Under the pieces are notes generated by a model that did not search any database, was not told where the DNA came from, and saw only the letters and a list, made by a program, of their open reading frames with translations. The position numbers were made by a program, and so were the translations under genes. 64,000 nt of DNA from positions 1-64,000 of the IMG/VR virus record IMGVR_UViG_3300017917_003859; one strand, 5' to 3'. Shown here piece after piece: positions 23,693 through 49,746 of the stretch (position 1 is the first letter of the stretch; every line of letters starts with the position of its first letter). Origin of the DNA: a virus.

Positions 23693-23974
23693 ATGAAATT
23701 ACCTATTTCTTTTAAAGACTTTGCAAAGGATCCGGTTAAAGGTCTTTTATTTATTGTCTTACTTGCTGTTGGATACTTATATTATGATAATAAAGCAAGT
23801 TATCAAACACAAGCCGCGGAATATAAGGAACAATATTCTGAATGTGGTTCTAAAGTAGAAGCTCTTGAAAAAAAGCTTGATGAAAGAACCGAAAAACTTA
23901 GAAGAGCAGACAGTATCATGGCTATTACAGTAGCTAGATTACAAGTATTAAACGATATAAATAAAATAAAATGA
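23693..23974 (+). CDS. inner-membrane coiled-coil protein, i-spanin candidate
   Basis: One N-terminal TM followed by a coiled coil; follows the endolysin. Confidence 0.5.
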   Translation: MKLPISFKDFAKDPVKGLLFIVLLAVGYLYYDNKASYQTQAAEYKEQYSECGSKVEALEKKLDERTEKLRRADSIMAITVARLQVLNDINKIK

Positions 23975-24333
23975 AAAAATTTATTATTATTAGTCTAGTT
24001 TTGGCATCTTGCCAAAATAAACCAGTACAAGTTGAAACTACATTCATTATAACTGATAGCCTTATTACAGTTGAGCCAGCTCCATCAGATACTATATCAT
24101 TTAAAATCTCAAATCTTTTACAAAGCACAGAAAATGCTGATAAAAAGGTAAAAGAAATTAAAGCTATTAAACAAGAAAATGTAAGTTTAAAAAAAGAACT
24201 TGTTGAAACTAAAGCTGAGCTTGAAGAAGCTAAAGCTATTCTTGCCGATACAACTTCAGAACCTATTAAGAAAAAGAAAAAAAGTTTTATACAAAAAGTA
24301 ATATCAACAATTAAAAAAGATACAACACAATGA
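23971..24333 (+). CDS. lipoprotein, o-spanin candidate
   Basis: MKKFIIISLVLASC lipobox; overlaps the previous gene by 4 nt; coiled coil. Confidence 0.6.
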   Translation: MKKFIIISLVLASCQNKPVQVETTFIITDSLITVEPAPSDTISFKISNLLQSTENADKKVKEIKAIKQENVSLKKELVETKAELEEAKAILADTTSEPIKKKKKSFIQKVISTIKKDTTQ

Positions 24334-41961: not shown

Positions 41962-43677
41962 ATGAGTTCAATTCAAACATTATTAGAATCAGCTAACCCA
42001 TGGAAATCACTTCAAAGTGATGCTGCTAAGTTAGCTACTAAATGGTCTAAAACAGGATTATTAGAGCATTTAGGAAATGACGTGGATAAAAATAACATGT
42101 CAATCTTATTAGAAAACCAAGCAAAACAGTTAGTAGTAGAAGCTAGCTCAACTGGTGCTGGTGCAACTGCAGGTACTTTTACTGTAGGTCAATCTGAAAA
42201 CTGGGCAGGTATTGCTTTACCATTAGTACGTAAAGTATTTGGTCAAATCGCTGCAAAAGAATTTGTTAGCGTTCAACCAATGAACTTACCTTCAGGTCTA
42301 GTGTTTTTCTTAGATTTCCAATACGGAACTAGCAAAAACCCATTCTCTTCAGGTGATTCACTTTATGGTACTCGTAGCGCAACTGGTCAGTTTCCATTCT
42401 CTACTACTGATACAACTGGTGGTTTATATGGTGCAGGTCGTTTTGCTTATTCAACTAACCAATTCTCAGCTTCAGTATTTATTACTGGTTCTGCTAACGG
42501 TGGTACTTTACCAGTTGTTGGTCCTGGAACAGGTTCAATTGTAACAGCTTCTTGGTCTGACTTAAACTTTGACGCTAATTACTCTGCTTCAGTAATTGCT
42601 AATGGAATTTACAAAGTTACTGTTCCTACAGCTTCTGGAGTATTATCTAACTTTGATCCAGATGGAGTTCGTGCGTTTGTTTTAACTACTGGTTCTTGGG
42701 CTACTGTAGCTAATTCTTTACCAGCATTTACATCTTACAACTACACTAACAACTCAATTACATTCTTTTTCACAGCTTCAGCTACATTAGCTGCTACTAT
42801 AGCTGGTGATAAAGCTGTAATTTATTACAATAAGATTACTGCTGATAACAATCGTGGTGATTTTGAAGATACAAGTTCTCCTTCATTCTCAGTTCCAAAT
42901 GCTGCTAGCGCTACAGCAATTTCTATCCCAGAAATCAATATCAAGATGCAATCTCAAGCTATCACTGCTAAAACTAAAAAGTTAAAAGCTGTATGGACTC
43001 CTGAATTTGCTCAAGATTTAAACGCTTATCAGAACATTGATGCTGAAGCTGAATTAACTAACATCATGAGTGAATATATTTCAATGGAAATTGATCTTGA
43101 AATTCTTGATATGTTAATCGAAGATGCTTCTGCAGCTACTGAATATTGGACAGTTCAAAATAACATCGCTTTAGGTGCTAGTGGTATTACTAATAGTAAC
43201 TTAGGTTTCTATAACACTCAAGGTGGTTGGTTCCAAACTCTTGGTACTAAAATGCAAAAAGTAAGTAACAAGATTCACCAATTAACTCTTCGTGGTGGTG
43301 CAAATTTCTTAGTATGTTCTCCAACAGTTGCTACTGTATTAGAATCAATCCCAGGATTTGCTGCTAACACTAATGGTGATGCTGCTAACATGGAATATGC
43401 AATGGGTGTTCAGAAAGTAGGTCAAATCAATAACCGTTACACAGTTTATAAGAACCCTTATATGACTGAAAACGTAATTTTGATGGGCTTCCGCGGTAAA
43501 CAATTCCTTGAATCAGGTGCTGTTTTCGCTCCATACATTCCGTTAATTATGACTCCTCTAGTGTACGATCCAAATACCTTCACTCCACGTAAAGGTTTAA
43601 TGACTCGTTACGCTAAGAAGATGTTACGTCCAGAATTTTATGGACGCATCTACGTGTCAGGTCTAAATACACTTTAA
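41962..43677 (+). CDS. major capsid protein, T4 gp23-like
   Basis: LLENQ; VSVQPM..PSGL.F; AKT.KLKA.WT.E.AQDL.A; EID.EI; APYIPL; F.P..G..TRY. Confidence 0.97.
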   Translation: MSSIQTLLESANPWKSLQSDAAKLATKWSKTGLLEHLGNDVDKNNMSILLENQAKQLVVEASSTGAGATAGTFTVGQSENWAGIALPLVRKVFGQIAAKEFVSVQPMNLPSGLVFFLDFQYGTSKNPFSSGDSLYGTRSATGQFPFSTTDTTGGLYGAGRFAYSTNQFSASVFITGSANGGTLPVVGPGTGSIVTASWSDLNFDANYSASVIANGIYKVTVPTASGVLSNFDPDGVRAFVLTTGSWATVANSLPAFTSYNYTNNSITFFFTASATLAATIAGDKAVIYYNKITADNNRGDFEDTSSPSFSVPNAASATAISIPEINIKMQSQAITAKTKKLKAVWTPEFAQDLNAYQNIDAEAELTNIMSEYISMEIDLEILDMLIEDASAATEYWTVQNNIALGASGITNSNLGFYNTQGGWFQTLGTKMQKVSNKIHQLTLRGGANFLVCSPTVATVLESIPGFAANTNGDAANMEYAMGVQKVGQINNRYTVYKNPYMTENVILMGFRGKQFLESGAVFAPYIPLIMTPLVYDPNTFTPRKGLMTRYAKKMLRPEFYGRIYVSGLNTL

Positions 43678-43698
43678 TATTTAAATAAAGTGAAGAAG

Positions 43699-43724
43699 AG
43701 AGCCGCATTTTTGCGGCTCTTTTT
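43699..43724 (+). terminator. intrinsic terminator after the capsid gene
   Basis: AGAGCCGCA-tttt-TGCGGCTCT followed by TTTT. Confidence 0.9.
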
Positions 43725-43757
43725 AATATTTATAATAGACCCGAAGATTCAAGGCTT

Positions 43758-44339
43758 ATGAAACAATGTAAAAGATGCAGTGTAGAAAAACAATTAACAG
43801 AATTCTGTAATAGAAAAGGTGAAATAGATGGTAAACATCGATATTGTAAATCTTGTTTAAAAAAAGAAAATGATCAATGGTATCATACTACTAAACAAAA
43901 TAGATCAAATTATTATAAAGAATATCGCAAACAAAATAAAGAATATTTTAATAAATATTGCTATATTCACTATCATACAAATAAAGATTTATATAGAGAA
44001 TGGAATAAAAATAAATACCATTCAGACCCAATATTTAGAATAAAACATGTAACTTCTGCTCGCATATTTGAAGCTCTTAAAACTTATCAAACATTCAAAC
44101 GAGATCGTACTATAGAATATTTAGGATGTACTATAGAAAAATACACACAATATCTTGAATCTAAATTTACCTCAGAAATGAATTGGGAAAATTATGGAGT
44201 ATATTGGGAAATAGATCATATTAAACCTATAGATTCTTTTGATTTAAACATAGAAAAAAATTTATATGTTTGTTTTCATTATACCAATACTCAACCTTTA
44301 GAAAAAAGTCAAAATCGAAAAAAAAGTAATAATATATAA
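43758..44339 (+). CDS. HNH homing endonuclease with N-terminal zinc finger
   Basis: CKRC...CKSC; LGC....HL-like; M.W.NYG..W.IDHI.P...CFHYTN.QPL....N..K. Confidence 0.85.
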   Translation: MKQCKRCSVEKQLTEFCNRKGEIDGKHRYCKSCLKKENDQWYHTTKQNRSNYYKEYRKQNKEYFNKYCYIHYHTNKDLYREWNKNKYHSDPIFRIKHVTSARIFEALKTYQTFKRDRTIEYLGCTIEKYTQYLESKFTSEMNWENYGVYWEIDHIKPIDSFDLNIEKNLYVCFHYTNTQPLEKSQNRKKSNNI

Positions 44340-44350
44340 TTTATAGAATT

Positions 44351-44380
44351 AGCCGAGCAAAAGCTCGGCTTTTTCTTTTT
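44351..44380 (+). terminator. intrinsic terminator
   Basis: AGCCGAGC-aaaa-GCTCGGCT followed by TTTTCTTTTT. Confidence 0.9.
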
Positions 44381-44383
44381 AAA

Positions 44384-44421
44384 TTTGGTTGTTAAATTAG
44401 TCTATCTATATTTATAATAAA
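44384..44421 (+). promoter_or_regulatory. overlapping host-type (TTTGG-N18-TATATTTA) and late-type (TATATTTATAATAAA) promoter
   Basis: Both motifs coincide upstream of phoH. Confidence 0.55.
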
Positions 44422-44430
44422 TTAATTACT

Positions 44431-45111
44431 ATGGTTGATAATAATGATGAGGTTTTTAAAAATAAAAAGAAACCAAAAAACCCAATTAAGTTCAAATTAG
44501 AACTTAATGAAGAACAAAAAGAAGCAAAACAAACTATTTTAGATAACCCAGTAGTATTACTTAAAGGAATGGCAGGTAGCGGTAAAACATTGTTAGCTTG
44601 TCAAGTTGCTTTAGATATGGTTTTTAAACAAGAATTAGAAAAAATAGTAATAACTCGTCCAACTGTATCTAAAGAAGAAATAGGATTTTTACCAGGTGAT
44701 TTAAAGGAAAAAATGGACCCTTGGTTAGCTCCAATTTATGCTAATTTATATCTATTATATGATAAAGATAAAATAGATAAAATGGTATTAGAAAACAAAA
44801 TAGAAATAGTTCCATTTGCATTTATGAGAGGTAGAACATTTCCAAATTGTTTTGTAATAATAGATGAATGTCAAAACATTACTCATTCACAAACTGAAAT
44901 GATTTTAGGTCGTTTAGGTAAAGGAGGTAAAATGGTATTTTGTGGTGATTTATCTCAAGTAGATTTAAAAAGTAAAAAAGACTCAGGAATTAGTTTTTTT
45001 ACTCGATTAGAAGAACGAATTAAAGGAGTAAAAATTGTTATTCTTAAGAAAAATCATCGTCATGAAATTGTTGAGGAAATTCTTAAAACATACGAAGAAT
45101 TTAGAGACTAA
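44431..45111 (+). CDS. phoH: PhoH-like ATPase
   Basis: GMAGSGKT; ITRP; GFLPGDL.EK..PW; FMRGRTF; DECQN; GD..Q.D; HR. Confidence 0.95.
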   Translation: MVDNNDEVFKNKKKPKNPIKFKLELNEEQKEAKQTILDNPVVLLKGMAGSGKTLLACQVALDMVFKQELEKIVITRPTVSKEEIGFLPGDLKEKMDPWLAPIYANLYLLYDKDKIDKMVLENKIEIVPFAFMRGRTFPNCFVIIDECQNITHSQTEMILGRLGKGGKMVFCGDLSQVDLKSKKDSGISFFTRLEERIKGVKIVILKKNHRHEIVEEILKTYEEFRD

Positions 45112-45136
45112 ATTAATTTGAAATTTTATTAAATAT

Positions 45137-45167
45137 AAAAGGATAACAGATGTTGTCCTTTTTATTT
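45137..45167 (+). terminator. intrinsic terminator
   Basis: AAAAGGATAACA/TGTTGTCCTTTT stem with T-rich tail. Confidence 0.75.
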
Positions 45168-45210
45168 ACCTAAATAAAATATACATTTTACTAATTTTAT
45201 TACCTAAATA

Positions 45211-45242
45211 TTTGGCGTATTCAACTAAATTATATATTTTTA
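45211..45242 (+). promoter_or_regulatory. Bacteroidota-type promoter TTTGG-N19-TATTTTTA
   Basis: Same architecture as the sites at 27542, 31002 and 13024; upstream of the T9SS cargo genes. Confidence 0.6.
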
Positions 45243-45282
45243 GTATTAAATTAATTTATAGTTATAAACAAAACAAAGTAAA

Positions 45283-47997
45283 ATGAAAAAATTATTTTTA
45301 AGTTTGATTATTGTATTGAGTTTCTCAATCTTTAATCTAAAAGCAGGTCATGGTATGCCTTTAGTAAATCCTTCATTCACTGTAGGAACAACTGGATTAA
45401 CCTTTACTGCAAGTTCAAATGCTGCTACTTGCGGTGGTGGCCCATATTGGTTACAAGTAGAATTACGTTGTACTTCTAGTCAATTAACCGGAACACCTCC
45501 TTCAACCATGCAAACCAACTTATTAAACTGGACAGGCCCAGGAGTAAATTATAATAGCTTTCCTTGGTTTAATTCTTTATTGAATGTTCCTAATTATACA
45601 TTCCCTACTTGGACTGATAATTGTACTACAGAGCCTTACAACTCCGTCTTTATATCTTTCACTGGATTATGTCCCGGACAAACATATTTCTTTTCAGCTC
45701 GTGAGTGGGTGAGTGGTACTAATTCTGTTGGTCCTTGGACAACACCTTCTTCTTTTGTAGTACCAGGTACATTTGTTCCATTAAATTTTAATGTAACTGC
45801 TTCACCTAGTATATTTTGTTCACCTGGATCTTCAACTTTAACTATAAGTAGTATAACTGGAGGATGCGGCCAGACAAACATTCAATGGTTACCTGGTGGT
45901 TCTACTTTAAATCCTATAGTTGTATCACCTGCTTCAACAACTAACTATACTGCTTTAGTTACTACTCCTTGTAATACTTTATCCAAAGTAATAACAGTAA
46001 CTGTAGTTCCAAACGTCAGTGCTGCCTTTACTCCCTTAAATACAAATACTTGCGCAGGAATTCCAGTACAATATAATCATACAGGAACAGCAGGTGTATC
46101 TCATATTTGGAGTGTTTTTCCTATTGGAGCTACTATTAGTAGTAATACAATTTCAAACCCATCAATAACCTTTAACAACCCAGGACTATACACTATTTCT
46201 CATACAGTATCTGTAGGAACTTGTAGTAATGTAGTTACAACAACTGCTAATATAACAGGAATAGGCGCATCATTTACATCTAGTAATCCAAATCAATGTT
46301 TACAAAATAATAGTTTTACATTTAATTCAACAGCTACTGTTGGTACACAGTCTTATACTTTTTCACCATCTATAGGTTCTCCACCATCAAGTAATACTCC
46401 AAATTATGGCCCTGTCAGCTTTACATCTCCAGGAACATATACTGTAACTTACTCAAATACTAATTCTGGATGTACTTCTTCAACGTATTCTGTGATTAAT
46501 ATTTATCCTACCCCAACACTAGCTGTCTCTAATAGTGGACCTGTTTGTGAAGGAAATAATATTAATTTAACTTTAACAACAACAGCTACTAGCTATAGTT
46601 GGACAGGTCCTAATGGTTTTACTTCTACATTACAAAATCCATCTATAACATCTACATCAGTAGCGAATTCAGGTACATACCAAATTAATGTAGCTAGTGT
46701 TAATAATTGTACTAATACTAGTAATACTAATGTTGTTATTAATCCTCCTCCTCAAATAACAGTAACTACTCCAACAGCATGCTCCGGAGGTTCTTTTTCT
46801 ATAAATTCTTTTGGAGGTATAAACTATACTTGGACTGGTCCTAATAGTTATACATCTAATTCACAAAATTTATTTTTTACAAATGCTAATTCAAATTTAA
46901 ATGGATTGTATACTGTGGTTGGCACTGATGTTAATGGTTGTATAGGAACCAATACTGTTTTAGTTAATGTTAATCCGTCATTCACTATAAGCATAAACAA
47001 CAATAGTCCAATATGTGCTGGTTCTGTATTACAACTTAACAGCCCTCCAGGATTTATATATAATTGGTCTGGTCCGAATGGATTTAGCTCAACACAGCAA
47101 ACACCACAACTAAGCAATGTATCATCACAAACTACAGGACAGTATTCGTTAAATGTTCAAGATAATAATGGATGTCAAGGTAGTGCTGTAACTAATGTTA
47201 TTGTTAATCCTTCACCTCAACTCAGTATTACCAACTCCAAAGATAAAATATGTACTCCAGCATGTGTTGATTTTACATTAAATGCTAGTTCTAGTTTAGC
47301 ATCTTTAATTTGGGAATTTATCAGTGGTGTATCTACAAATACAAATACTTCAACTCAATGTTATACTAAAGGAGGAATATACACATCAACAGCAACTGCT
47401 ACTGATGTAAATGGATGTATTAGTGTTATAACTCATAGTGTGGAAGTATATGATACACCAACTGCTGATTTTATTTTCTCACCTTTAAAACCTATCGAGA
47501 ATGAATATGTACAATTTTCTAATGCCTCTTACGGAGCACCATTAACTAGTATGATAAATGGATGGTATATAAATAATGAACTTACTTCATTTGCTAACAG
47601 TCCTCAAATAGCATTCCAATATCCTGGAGACTATCTTGTGACTTTAATAGTTTTAACTACTCATGGTTGTAGTGATACTATTTCTAAAATAGTAAATATA
47701 AAAGAAAATTATTATTTATGGGTACCAAATTCATTTACCCCAAATAATGATGGATTAAATGATACATTCCAGCCAAAAGGTCAAGGAATTGCTAAGTACG
47801 AGTTGATGGTGTTTGATCGTTGGGGTGAAATGATTTTTAAAACTAAGGAATTTAATCAAGGGTGGGATGGTAAACATCATAGAGGTATAGATTATGGTAT
47901 TTATTGTAAAGATGATGTATATACTTGGTTAATAAAAGTAACTGATGTTTTTGGTAAATCACATGAATTAAAAGGACATGTTACATTAATAAAATAA
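45283..47997 (+). CDS. secreted Ig/PKD-repeat protein with type B T9SS sorting domain (gliding-motility-associated C-terminal domain, CHU_C/TIGR04131)
   Basis: Sec signal peptide; Y.W(T/S)GPN repeats; PKD strands; C-terminal VPNSFTPNNDGLND.F...FDRWGE.IF......GWDG...VY......KGHVTLIK. Confidence 0.92.
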   Translation: MKKLFLSLIIVLSFSIFNLKAGHGMPLVNPSFTVGTTGLTFTASSNAATCGGGPYWLQVELRCTSSQLTGTPPSTMQTNLLNWTGPGVNYNSFPWFNSLLNVPNYTFPTWTDNCTTEPYNSVFISFTGLCPGQTYFFSAREWVSGTNSVGPWTTPSSFVVPGTFVPLNFNVTASPSIFCSPGSSTLTISSITGGCGQTNIQWLPGGSTLNPIVVSPASTTNYTALVTTPCNTLSKVITVTVVPNVSAAFTPLNTNTCAGIPVQYNHTGTAGVSHIWSVFPIGATISSNTISNPSITFNNPGLYTISHTVSVGTCSNVVTTTANITGIGASFTSSNPNQCLQNNSFTFNSTATVGTQSYTFSPSIGSPPSSNTPNYGPVSFTSPGTYTVTYSNTNSGCTSSTYSVINIYPTPTLAVSNSGPVCEGNNINLTLTTTATSYSWTGPNGFTSTLQNPSITSTSVANSGTYQINVASVNNCTNTSNTNVVINPPPQITVTTPTACSGGSFSINSFGGINYTWTGPNSYTSNSQNLFFTNANSNLNGLYTVVGTDVNGCIGTNTVLVNVNPSFTISINNNSPICAGSVLQLNSPPGFIYNWSGPNGFSSTQQTPQLSNVSSQTTGQYSLNVQDNNGCQGSAVTNVIVNPSPQLSITNSKDKICTPACVDFTLNASSSLASLIWEFISGVSTNTNTSTQCYTKGGIYTSTATATDVNGCISVITHSVEVYDTPTADFIFSPLKPIENEYVQFSNASYGAPLTSMINGWYINNELTSFANSPQIAFQYPGDYLVTLIVLTTHGCSDTISKIVNIKENYYLWVPNSFTPNNDGLNDTFQPKGQGIAKYELMVFDRWGEMIFKTKEFNQGWDGKHHRGIDYGIYCKDDVYTWLIKVTDVFGKSHELKGHVTLIK

Positions 47998-47999
47998 AA

Positions 48000-49280
48000 A
48001 TGAGAAAAATATTATTAATTATATTTTTATTTGTACTTAATATAAGTAAATCCCAAATGTGTAATACAGCTCCTACTAATATGGGAGCTATTACACCCCT
48101 AACGGCTTGGACAAACGTAGCTGCTAATTTAGGAGCTAAAAGATATTGGACTTTCAATGCTACAGCAGGATGTACTTATGATTTTAGTTCTTGTAATGGT
48201 ACAAATACAAATGATACTTATTTAAGATTATATTCTGGTATAAGTCCATTAACAGCAATATTACAAACTTCAAATGATGATTTTGGAGTTTGGTGTACAG
48301 GAAGTACAAAAGCCTCATTATCTTGGGCGTGTACAGTAAGTGGAGCTTATTCTATTTTATTAACAAATTATTCTTGTGCTAACTTATCTCAAAATTCAAT
48401 ATTTAGTTATAAAGTAACTTGCCCAGTTATTCCTTCTAATAATAATTGTTCAGGAGCAATTGCTATAGGTATTCCTTATACAAGCCCAGTGACCTCAAAC
48501 AATGGAGCTACAGACGATGTGCCAACAAGCATCTCAGGTTGTGGCACACAGGGATCTAATATTTGGTATAAAGTTGTAGGTAATAACAATCAATTAACCG
48601 CTACTACATGTAATGCATCTACAAACTTTGATACTGAAGTGAGAGTATATACTGGAACTTGTTCTTCTCTTAATTCTATGGTTGAAATAGGATGTAACGA
48701 TGATGATGGAGCATGCGCTGCTGGAATTTTAAAATCAACAGTAACATGGTGTTCTTTATCAGGAACTACTTATTATATTTCAGTAGGATATTTTGCTTCT
48801 GGAGCAGGATATGGTAATTTTGTTCTATCAGTTACTAATGGAGCTGTTTGTTCTGTCTTACCTATAGAACTAATTCAATTTGAAGGTCAAAATAAAGATA
48901 TATATAATTATATTAGTTGGGTAACTGCTAATGAAATAAATAATAATTATTTTATTTTAGAAAGAAGTATAGATGGAGAAAATTGGTCTATAATTAATAC
49001 TCAAACTGGAGCTGGAACCTCTAATGCTCCTAAAATGTATGAACATAAAGATTATTATTTTGATAAAAACAATATTAATTATTATAAATTAAGTCAAGTA
49101 GATTTTAATAATCAAAAAACATATTTTAATGTTATAGCAATTGATTTTAAAAAACAATCTACTTGTGAAATATATGAATATTATGATTTATTAGGTAAAA
49201 AAATTAATATACAAGAAGTTATTCCTGGAATTTATCTGAGAAAATGTAATGATAAAATTGAAAAATTTATAAAAAATTAA
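48000..49280 (+). CDS. secreted Cys-rich protein with type A-like T9SS C-terminus
   Basis: Signal peptide then Q; two DT....Y.G...NDD..C domains; LPIEL..F...W.TA.E.NN.YF..ERS.DG...YY.L.QVDF domain; short YDLLGK...GIY tail. Confidence 0.8.
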   Translation: MRKILLIIFLFVLNISKSQMCNTAPTNMGAITPLTAWTNVAANLGAKRYWTFNATAGCTYDFSSCNGTNTNDTYLRLYSGISPLTAILQTSNDDFGVWCTGSTKASLSWACTVSGAYSILLTNYSCANLSQNSIFSYKVTCPVIPSNNNCSGAIAIGIPYTSPVTSNNGATDDVPTSISGCGTQGSNIWYKVVGNNNQLTATTCNASTNFDTEVRVYTGTCSSLNSMVEIGCNDDDGACAAGILKSTVTWCSLSGTTYYISVGYFASGAGYGNFVLSVTNGAVCSVLPIELIQFEGQNKDIYNYISWVTANEINNNYFILERSIDGENWSIINTQTGAGTSNAPKMYEHKDYYFDKNNINYYKLSQVDFNNQKTYFNVIAIDFKKQSTCEIYEYYDLLGKKINIQEVIPGIYLRKCNDKIEKFIKN

Positions 49281-49304
49281 ATAAAAATATATACTATTAT
49301 TTTG

Positions 49305-49334
49305 AATCCCTCTATCAATTAGAGGGATTTTTTT
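49305..49334 (+). terminator. intrinsic terminator
   Basis: AATCCCTCTA-tcaat-TAGAGGGATT followed by TTTTT. Confidence 0.88.
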
Positions 49335-49343
49335 ATTGTTTTA

Positions 49344-49358
49344 AATATTTATAATAAA
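49344..49358 (+). promoter_or_regulatory. putative late promoter AATATTTATAATAAA
   Basis: Exact consensus directly after the terminator. Confidence 0.65.
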
Positions 49359-49365
49359 ACATAAT

Positions 49366-49746
49366 ATGTCAGCAGGTAGGTATTCATTTGTTATAGAACA
49401 AGGTTCAACATTAAATTTAGAACTCCAATATAAAGATGCTAGTGGAAATCCAATAGATTTAACAGATTATAATGGTAGAATGCAAATTCGTCCTTCAATT
49501 GCTTCTAGTACAATTTATATATCTTTAAGTAGTTCTTTACAAGCAGATGGAACAGGATTAAATTTTAGTGGATCAAATGGATCAACTCCTCCTACTTCTG
49601 GTTCAATAGGAGTATATATTTCTGCTATTTCTTCTTCATTGTTAGATTTTGATCAAGCGGTATATGATTTGGAAATATATTCTGGAAGTTATGTATCAAG
49701 AATTTTAGAAGGACAAATTAAATTATCTAAAGAAGTAACTCGATAA
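49366..49746 (+). CDS. small virion / fibre-attachment Ig-like protein
   Basis: IEQG.T....Y.D..G.P.DLT.Y..RMQIR...YDLE......RILEG pattern common before fibre genes. Confidence 0.65.
   Translation: MSAGRYSFVIEQGSTLNLELQYKDASGNPIDLTDYNGRMQIRPSIASSTIYISLSSSLQADGTGLNFSGSNGSTPPTSGSIGVYISAISSSLLDFDQAVYDLEIYSGSYVSRILEGQIKLSKEVTR

Follow-up and report, generated by a model that had tools for sequence, protein, structure and literature searches.

A terminator-bounded pair of predicted type IX secretion cargo genes inserted in the genome of a large freshwater phage

The DNA described here is the first 64 kb (64,000 nucleotides, referred to below as the window) of IMGVR_UViG_3300017917_003859, a freshwater virus record of 155,027 bp in IMG/VR. 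The record has a GC content of 28.6%, carries one tRNA and is 95% complete by CheckV. Between its phoH gene and a block of structural-type genes lie two tandem open reading frames (ORFs) on the plus strand, P0001 (904 residues) and P0002 (426 residues), separated by 2 nucleotides. P0001 ends in a type B sorting domain of a type IX secretion system (T9SS), and P0002 in an FN3-fold domain followed by a short tail. An original prediction, made from the sequence alone, had described a 4.2-kb two-gene unit bounded by two terminators and placed between phoH and later genes. Both points stand: a hairpin with a U-tract was found on either side, genes for the major head protein, an HNH/endonuclease VII-like protein and PhoH lie upstream, and conserved structural genes lie downstream (Table 1). 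The cassette of two coupled genes between hairpin terminators is real, and its products have the predicted make-up of cargo for the secretion machinery of the host.

The C-terminus of P0001 is matched by PF13585 (E = 1.4e-14, 54.4 bits against a cut-off of 27; model positions 3-84 of 86) and by TIGR04131 (E = 7.9e-13, 48.4 bits against a cut-off of 35; model positions 3-84 of 85), in both cases over residues 814-903. The clear type B sorting domain read from the sequence beforehand thus passed both curated cut-offs of the hidden Markov models (HMMs). It is the sole domain of its kind in the phage genome and is placed at the extreme C-terminus of the protein (814-903 of 904), with a Sec signal peptide at the N-terminus. 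This leader consists of MKK, a hydrophobic stretch and LKA, and cleavage probably occurs after LKA, near residue 21. The N-terminal region of about 240 residues has no family match; it is followed by Ig/PKD-like repeats with regularly spaced Cys pairs, for which PKD/Ig matches were obtained. Relatives of P0001 on bacterial chromosomes share 30-45% identity with it and are annotated as 'gliding motility-associated C-terminal domain' proteins, and a few nearer relatives (58-71% identity) are found on contigs that measure 75-180 kb. Apart from the place where it is encoded, P0001 appears to be an ordinary type B cargo.

Which other proteins of this phage might leave the cytoplasm? Signal peptides were called by a simple hydrophobicity heuristic, and among the 157 ORFs of the phage only P0001 and P0002 have leaders of the signal peptidase I type; the original prediction had given signal peptides to both. 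Both are also rich in Cys, again as expected: P0001 has 23 Cys (2.5%) and P0002 has 17 (4.0%, rank 4 of the 157 ORFs), against a genome median of 0.83%. In Bacteroidota, signal peptidase I substrates carry a Gln directly after the leader (the 'Q-rule'). P0002 fits this rule, with a Gln19 that is invariant in 18/18 homologues. The only other exported-looking protein in the scan is a small lipoprotein of 120 residues (window positions 23971-24333, plus strand), which starts with a leader of the lipoprotein type (MKKFIIISLVLAS-C) and has a tail rich in Lys and Glu. It is a candidate for action on the envelope, superinfection exclusion being one example.

Table 1. Features of the cassette and of the adjoining phage genes (window coordinates)
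Feature	Coordinates	Strand	Basis or remarks
Major head protein	41962-43677		phrog_138, 2e-68 (PHROGs); upstream of cassette
HNH/endonuclease VII-like gene	43758-44339		PHROGs; upstream of cassette
PhoH	44431-45111		2e-67 (PHROGs); upstream of cassette
Hairpin and U-tract; phoH transcript terminator, 5' border of cassette	45130-45168	+	RNA fold
AT-rich spacer with duplicated TTACCTAAATA word	45169-45282	+	CCTAAATA starts at 45169 and 45203
P0001	45283-47997	+	904 residues; signal peptide, ~240-residue N-terminal region, Ig/PKD-like repeats, type B T9SS sorting domain
C-terminal T9SS sorting domain of type B (CHU_C / TIGR04131), residues 814-904	47722-47994	+	PF13585, TIGR04131
P0002	48000-49280	+	426 residues; signal peptide, Gln19, two PPC/collagen-binding-like domains, FN3 'LPIEL' domain, short tail
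Two Cys-rich beta-sandwiches like PPC / ColG collagen-binding domains, residues 22-140 and 142-280	48063-48839	+	AlphaFold2 model, fold matches
FN3-fold 'LPIEL' domain, residues 285-388	48852-49163	+	Z 10-11 to many FN3 domains
Tail of ~37 residues, three short strands, ending G-I-Y ... K-x-x-K	49164-49277	+	candidate minimal sorting signal
Intrinsic terminator, 3' border of cassette	49304-49330	+	11-bp stem and T-run (consensus scan)
Conserved 126-residue gene (g126)	49366-49746		phrog_1084; downstream of cassette, followed by large structural-type ORFs

The N-terminal part of P0002 was interpreted from an AlphaFold2 model built on 72 sequences (mean predicted local distance difference test score, pLDDT, 88.8). 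In VIA-align, a sandwich domain matches the collagen-binding domain (CBD) of ColG (1nqd) with a Z score of 11.1 (106 residues aligned, root-mean-square deviation 2.4) and, at the same level, PliG (4dzg; Z 11.0), while Foldseek pairs the sandwiches with a tandem ColG CBD (5iku) at 4.3e-9. Both proteins had been described as Ig/PKD proteins; the description is right for P0001 and does not extend to the N-terminal domains of P0002, which are of the PPC or collagen-binding type. Relatives of this N-terminal part occur in metagenome-assembled genomes of freshwater Flavobacteriales and Crocinitomicaceae (30-44% identity), where it heads proteins of 1000-2400 residues that end in CHU_C or Por_Secre_tail domains, and a large phage-resident clade of P0002-type proteins is found at 50-65% identity. 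Across an alignment of 18 homologues, 56 columns are invariant, including eight Cys, and the ORFs are intact. PHROGs contains no family for P0001 or P0002, and the cassette has no megablast match among GenBank phages; in the same set, the only tblastn matches were to parts of the C-terminal regions, in four huge, uncultured phages of 460-640 kb (LR756502, LR745206, LR756500 and LR756504). These genomes have C-terminal regions like the C-terminal domain (CTD) of type B and like the LPIEL module, in several places per genome.

The C-terminal module of P0002 belongs to no catalogued family. No Pfam or NCBIfam model matches the protein even at E <= 10, the FN3 domain included, and no match to PF18962 was found in the phage genome at E <= 1. 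TIGR04183 reaches only one of 18 module members (E = 0.12). Among NCBIfam models no match of any kind was obtained, nor, as far as that library contains a type C model, one to the ChiA-type domain (cl41395). When the module was used in fold searches, generic FN3 folds were all that came back, and the top rows did not include a solved T9SS CTD; kinship is still compatible with this result. In the AlphaFold2 model the tail strands span residues 393-395, 410-416 and 419-425.

Is this tail related to the type A signal? The short form is constant in length, with 52-62 residues after the motif YYRLxQxD in P0002 and in more than 100 relatives (252-694 residues). Bacterial relatives show a long form, in which a complete type A domain, starting with PNP, comes after the 'LPxEL' FN3 domain and 94-107 residues follow the same motif. 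When a profile of the tail alone was compared with one of the type A CTD alone, hhalign gave E = 2.5e-4 and a probability of 43% (E = 0.44 for the reversed control), and the strands DxxGxxV and GxY are both matched in the alignment, with a deletion of 16 residues between them. A comparison that included the shared FN3 strand (E = 4e-15) was discarded as inflated, and the tail-only test was used in its place. Of the 30 nearest clusters in the ESM Atlas, taken as a lead only, 24 consist of Por_Secre_tail proteins, with bacterial clusters among them, and others are 100% viral; the purely viral clusters carry the module behind CUB, MAM or unknown passengers.

Like the type A CTDs of RgpB and HBP35 (PMC10202324), the C-terminal region of P0002 consists of a beta-sandwich and then C-terminal strands with G-x-Y and terminal Lys residues. 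Unlike these domains, which have about 70-100 residues and seven strands, the tail consists of three strands in about 37 residues, has neither the PNP strand nor the hairpin of the middle part, and is not recognised by the family HMMs. The original description of an LPIEL domain with a shortened, type A-like tail is therefore sound for the domain and for the short tail, and its type A label, which TIGR04183 and PF18962 do not reach, is weakly supported. The tail is plausibly a cut-down type A signal, to judge from the alignment, and is not a family member by the family's own models.

The distribution of the module in bacteria is narrow. Full-length copies with the short tail were found in 41 of 101 genomes from the family of a metagenome-assembled Crocinitomicaceae genome, with up to 20 copies per genome, and in one of 401 genomes sampled evenly across the phylum. 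The FN3 domain by itself ('LPxEL ... YYRLxQxD') is more widespread, with matches in 96 of the 101 family genomes (up to about 30 per genome) and in 33 of the 401. Six regions of host-family genomes were fetched, four of them from contigs of 0.36-1.49 Mb. The module stands at the C-terminus in four of the six, and the proteins mostly have signal-peptide-like N-termini; the two largest of the six contigs gave no motif match. In an earlier search of five bacterial genomes, module matches had ended at profile positions of about 100-132 of 140; the idea that the short tail is specific to phages was overturned by the many full-length chromosomal copies in the family-wide search. In one host-family genome (G080, contig C40, 14000-29052), four large cargo genes with the short tail stand in tandem, out of about 20 in the genome, which suggests an expanding family of surface proteins. 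The module marks the likely host lineage, and the host of the phage is most likely a freshwater member of the Crocinitomicaceae (Flavobacteriales).

Has the cassette been inserted into a phage genome that normally lacks it? With the 126-residue downstream gene as a probe, 80 related viral loci were collected at 65-85% identity. PhoH and the probe gene are both present in 64 of the 80 and are adjacent (gap of 150 nucleotides or less) in 47 of these 64. No homologue of P0001 or P0002, no short-tail module and no type A or CHU_C domain was found within about 9 kb in any of the 80 loci. The cassette is thus an insertion, that is, a phage moron or accessory unit. The GC content of its ORFs (about 31-33%) is near that of the adjoining phage genes. 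The region that runs from the capsid gene past phoH as far as the following structural gene (41962-49746; relatives L079-L158) is a plasticity zone of this phage group, occupied in relatives by HNH/endonuclease VII-like genes, a pair of 304- and 239-residue genes, a Cys-rich ORF of 450 residues, or nothing.

The same module is common in other phages. A search of IMG/VR returned 364 relatives, and the best 80 loci were examined; the query included the tail, so the ranking favours the short form. An FN3-plus-short-tail protein is encoded in 77 of these best 80 of 364 loci, on at least 77 viral contigs. Among 64 distinct full-length viral module proteins, signal peptides are present in 60, and the predicted site of cleavage has a Gln in 58. 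Other genes are shared with this phage in 60 of the best 80 loci, and independent assemblies place cassette homologues beside homologues of this phage's own genes. A homing-endonuclease-like (HNH-like) gene often lies between the short-tail gene and the capsid gene (loci L161-L240), a hint that the short-tail gene is transferred along with the nuclease or that the site is a favoured one with late expression.

The combination of a type B gene with a P0002-type gene recurs in a phage of 181.6 kb (100% complete by CheckV), with products of 1225 and 427 residues, and in several metagenomic phage contigs, where the two genes occur in either order. P0002-type genes are also found alone. The type B gene as a constant companion of the short-tail gene was rejected, as it is present in only three of the best 80 viral loci.

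Each border of the cassette is marked by a hairpin. The upstream hairpin (45130-45168) has a folding energy of -14 kcal/mol with a z score of -5.4, and none of 200 shuffled sequences folded as well; it was not called by the consensus terminator scan, whose GC rule it fails and the downstream hairpin meets. In the RNA fold, the downstream hairpin (49298-49340) reaches -15.7 kcal/mol with a z score of -4.8. The spacer ahead of P0001 contains the word TTACCTAAATA twice, 34 nucleotides apart (window positions 45166-45213). Its shorter form CCTAAATA occurs seven times in the whole genome, two of these in the spacer, and was rejected as a recurrent upstream motif since it does not recur upstream of genes. 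A host-type promoter had also been predicted for the cassette, and this claim was not confirmed. The 171-nucleotide spacer contains no match to the Bacteroidota -33/-7 pattern TTTG-N17-21-TAnnTTTG and only a -7 box with one mismatch. Neither TAnnTTTG nor the T4-type TATAAATA is enriched in the intergenic DNA of the phage, and sigma-70-like matches are at chance level.

What would become of these two proteins during infection? The proposal that the phage encodes cargo built for the host Sec pathway and T9SS agrees with the type B domain, the signal peptides that follow the Gln rule, the bacterial homologues that are T9SS cargo, and the insertion. In our estimation it is fairly probable that the cassette is an accessory unit of a large lytic phage and that both of its proteins are exported by the host Sec and T9SS machinery to the surface of the infected cell. 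The cassette would sit as a moron at a variable spot behind the capsid gene. During infection, both proteins would be made with cleavable Sec signal peptides and would fold with disulfides in the periplasm, and the host T9SS would move them across the outer membrane. P0001 would travel by means of its type B domain, as an 'orphan' cargo of one among the many PorP/SprF-type shuttles of the host, and would stay on the surface as a long, adhesin-like fibre of Ig repeats. P0002 would be carried by its FN3 domain and a minimal tail, in which just the final strands of a type A sorting domain are kept, a module that many chromosomal proteins of the host lineage also use, and would display two collagen-binding-type (PPC) domains.

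What has been shown is the domain make-up, the signal peptides, the insertion and the distribution among phages and hosts; the steps beyond these are less secure. Export through Sec and the T9SS is likely, judging from the predicted signals, and the infected cell would probably be given new adhesin-like surface proteins. That export depends on the T9SS, that the proteins are retained at the surface and that the phage benefits, for example by altered adhesion or by masking or displacing receptors delivered by the T9SS, is what we infer. The purposes that had been put forward (receptor masking, adhesion, gliding change or translocon jamming) are guesses. Jamming loses in likelihood, since many chromosomal host proteins end in the same short tail. 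Phage resistance in Flavobacterium is reported to be linked to gliding and T9SS genes (10.1101/2020.10.02.323337, PMC9804748), which makes receptor-related roles reasonable.

Several points weigh against export to the cell surface. Type B cargo normally depend on a cognate shuttle, which this phage does not supply: the absence of a PorP/SprF gene, already noted for the window, holds for the whole 155-kb genome (PF11751, E <= 1), and none was found in the related 181-kb phage either (PF11751). The missing partner is less of a problem because orphan type B cargo with a single host shuttle in common have been described in Flavobacterium johnsoniae (PMC12618676) and because the likely host family holds 5-30 PorP/SprF copies in each of 41/41 searched genomes. 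The F. johnsoniae cargo proteins Fjoh_1123 and Fjoh_1720, as well as Fjoh_4934, which have orphan type B CTDs, use Fjoh_1677 as their shuttle (Paillat et al. 2025, PMC12618676). Like these orphans and SprB, P0001 has a TIGR04131-type CTD on a long Ig-repeat protein, and no porP/sprF gene lies beside it. Unlike the orphans and the SprB-SprF pair, it is encoded by a phage, so any shuttle must be the host's; and unlike SprB/SprF, the gene after P0001 encodes P0002, predicted to be a soluble beta-sandwich protein and not an outer-membrane barrel.

The tail of P0002 is a further difficulty, in that it is recognised by neither TIGR04183 nor PF18962 and is not a seven-strand Ig-like domain. Secretion in F. 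johnsoniae generally needs longer CTD regions. A minimal tail could nevertheless work, since the final 22 residues of the HBP35 CTD, with motifs D and E, are reported to be enough for secretion of green fluorescent protein (PMC10202324). To these points must be added that the identity of the host is one we infer and that the search of the 171-nucleotide spacer gave no promoter. Finally, a homologue of the capsid gene lies within 6 kb in 30 of the best 80 module loci, so that a virion-linked role is conceivable; a site near the capsid gene is the place of hoc in T4.

Among the alternatives, the one that survives best, unlikely as we think it, is that the proteins reach the periplasm and act there on the T9SS or the envelope, through competition for a shuttle or translocon, a reduced number of host adhesins or receptors, or superinfection exclusion by jamming, or that P0002 is a periplasmic binder or inhibitor. 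Signal peptides on both proteins would be expected in this case too, and the tail as a truncated version of the type A signal, the lack of a PorP/SprF partner for P0001, and a P0002 domain as close to the periplasmic lysozyme inhibitor PliG as to the ColG CBD would all be in keeping with it, as would the reported mapping of Flavobacterium phage resistance to gliding and T9SS genes. An identical module on chromosomal proteins in so many host-family genomes, at up to 20 each, would be hard to square with a blocking signal, however, and the passenger domains are adhesin-like, as they are in genuine cargo.

It is more doubtful still that the cassette is recently captured host DNA carried as a passenger with no role for the phage, or a chimera of assembly. 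The insertion is unique among the 80 relatives and the genes are host-like, as might be expected of either. By contrast, P0002 is closer to its phage-resident clade than to the matches in bacterial genomes, which lie in much larger proteins; the independent assemblies with homologues of this phage's genes alongside, the intact ORFs with their invariant columns and Cys, the GC content near that of the neighbouring phage genes and the tidy terminators likewise speak against this reading.

The least probable alternative, for which we see very little room, is that the two are virion decoration or adhesion proteins like the outer capsid protein Hoc of T4, with the FN3-plus-tail module on the capsid and the N-terminal domains facing outward: domains of the Ig-like, PPC and FN3 kinds are characteristic of decoration proteins in phages, Hoc is likewise modular, rich in Ig-type domains and encoded near the major capsid gene, and the T4 gene order 23 - segD - ... 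- hoc resembles the arrangement of capsid, homing-endonuclease-like and short-tail genes at the 30 capsid-proximal loci, but Sec signal peptides of the Gln-rule type and conserved Cys cannot be reconciled with cytoplasmic assembly, giant chromosomal proteins of bacteria end in the same module, the closest 80 relatives build virions without the cassette, and P0001 ends in a bona fide secretion domain. To our knowledge, T4 Hoc has no signal peptide and no secretion domain, unlike P0001 and P0002, whose leaders are shared by 60/64 of the viral family members.

A broader proposal can also be made, which we put forward tentatively and with the balance somewhat against it. The FN3 'LPxEL' domain with its 37-residue tail may represent a class of T9SS sorting signal that is new, confined to one lineage and derived in minimal form from type A, and that the Crocinitomicaceae would share with hundreds of their phages. 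With its help, and at times with a type B cargo in addition, the phages would display swappable binding domains (PPC, CUB or MAM) on infected cells.

Phage-encoded T9SS cargo as such has already been published. A cargo of this kind was reported for 'Cryophage' (Bellas et al. 2020, Nat Commun, PMC7468147), and ORFs with T9SS sorting domains that adjoin crAss-BACON genes were noted by de Jonge et al. (2019, PMC6949934). The present case resembles these in that phage genes with T9SS sorting domains lie in variable regions and a hijack of host secretion is proposed; all three are computational inferences. In the Cryophage and crAss-BACON examples, type A domains are found on glycoside hydrolases, PA14 or BACON proteins, whereas here a type B, adhesin-like protein accompanies an uncatalogued FN3-plus-short-tail protein in a freshwater phage with a T4-type head gene. 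What is new is the pairing of type B and short-tail genes as a terminator-bounded insertion. Also new, on the evidence of the profile searches, are the FN3-plus-short-tail region as a distinct, uncatalogued C-terminal module of constant length and the apparent restriction of this module to one bacterial family and its phages.

The passage of phage proteins through the T9SS has so far been proposed from sequence, and the cassette offers two compact and intact test objects: an orphan type B cargo without a shuttle, and a C-terminal module, short and uncatalogued, with a high abundance in a single bacterial family and its phages. If the 142-residue module, or the 37-residue tail by itself, drives secretion, it would be a new minimal T9SS signal. 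Many surface proteins now called 'hypothetical' could then be better annotated, and the module would serve as a host-prediction marker for freshwater phages. The purpose of the cassette, be it adhesion of the infected cell or masking of receptors, would bear on the dynamics between phages and hosts among the abundant Bacteroidota of lakes.

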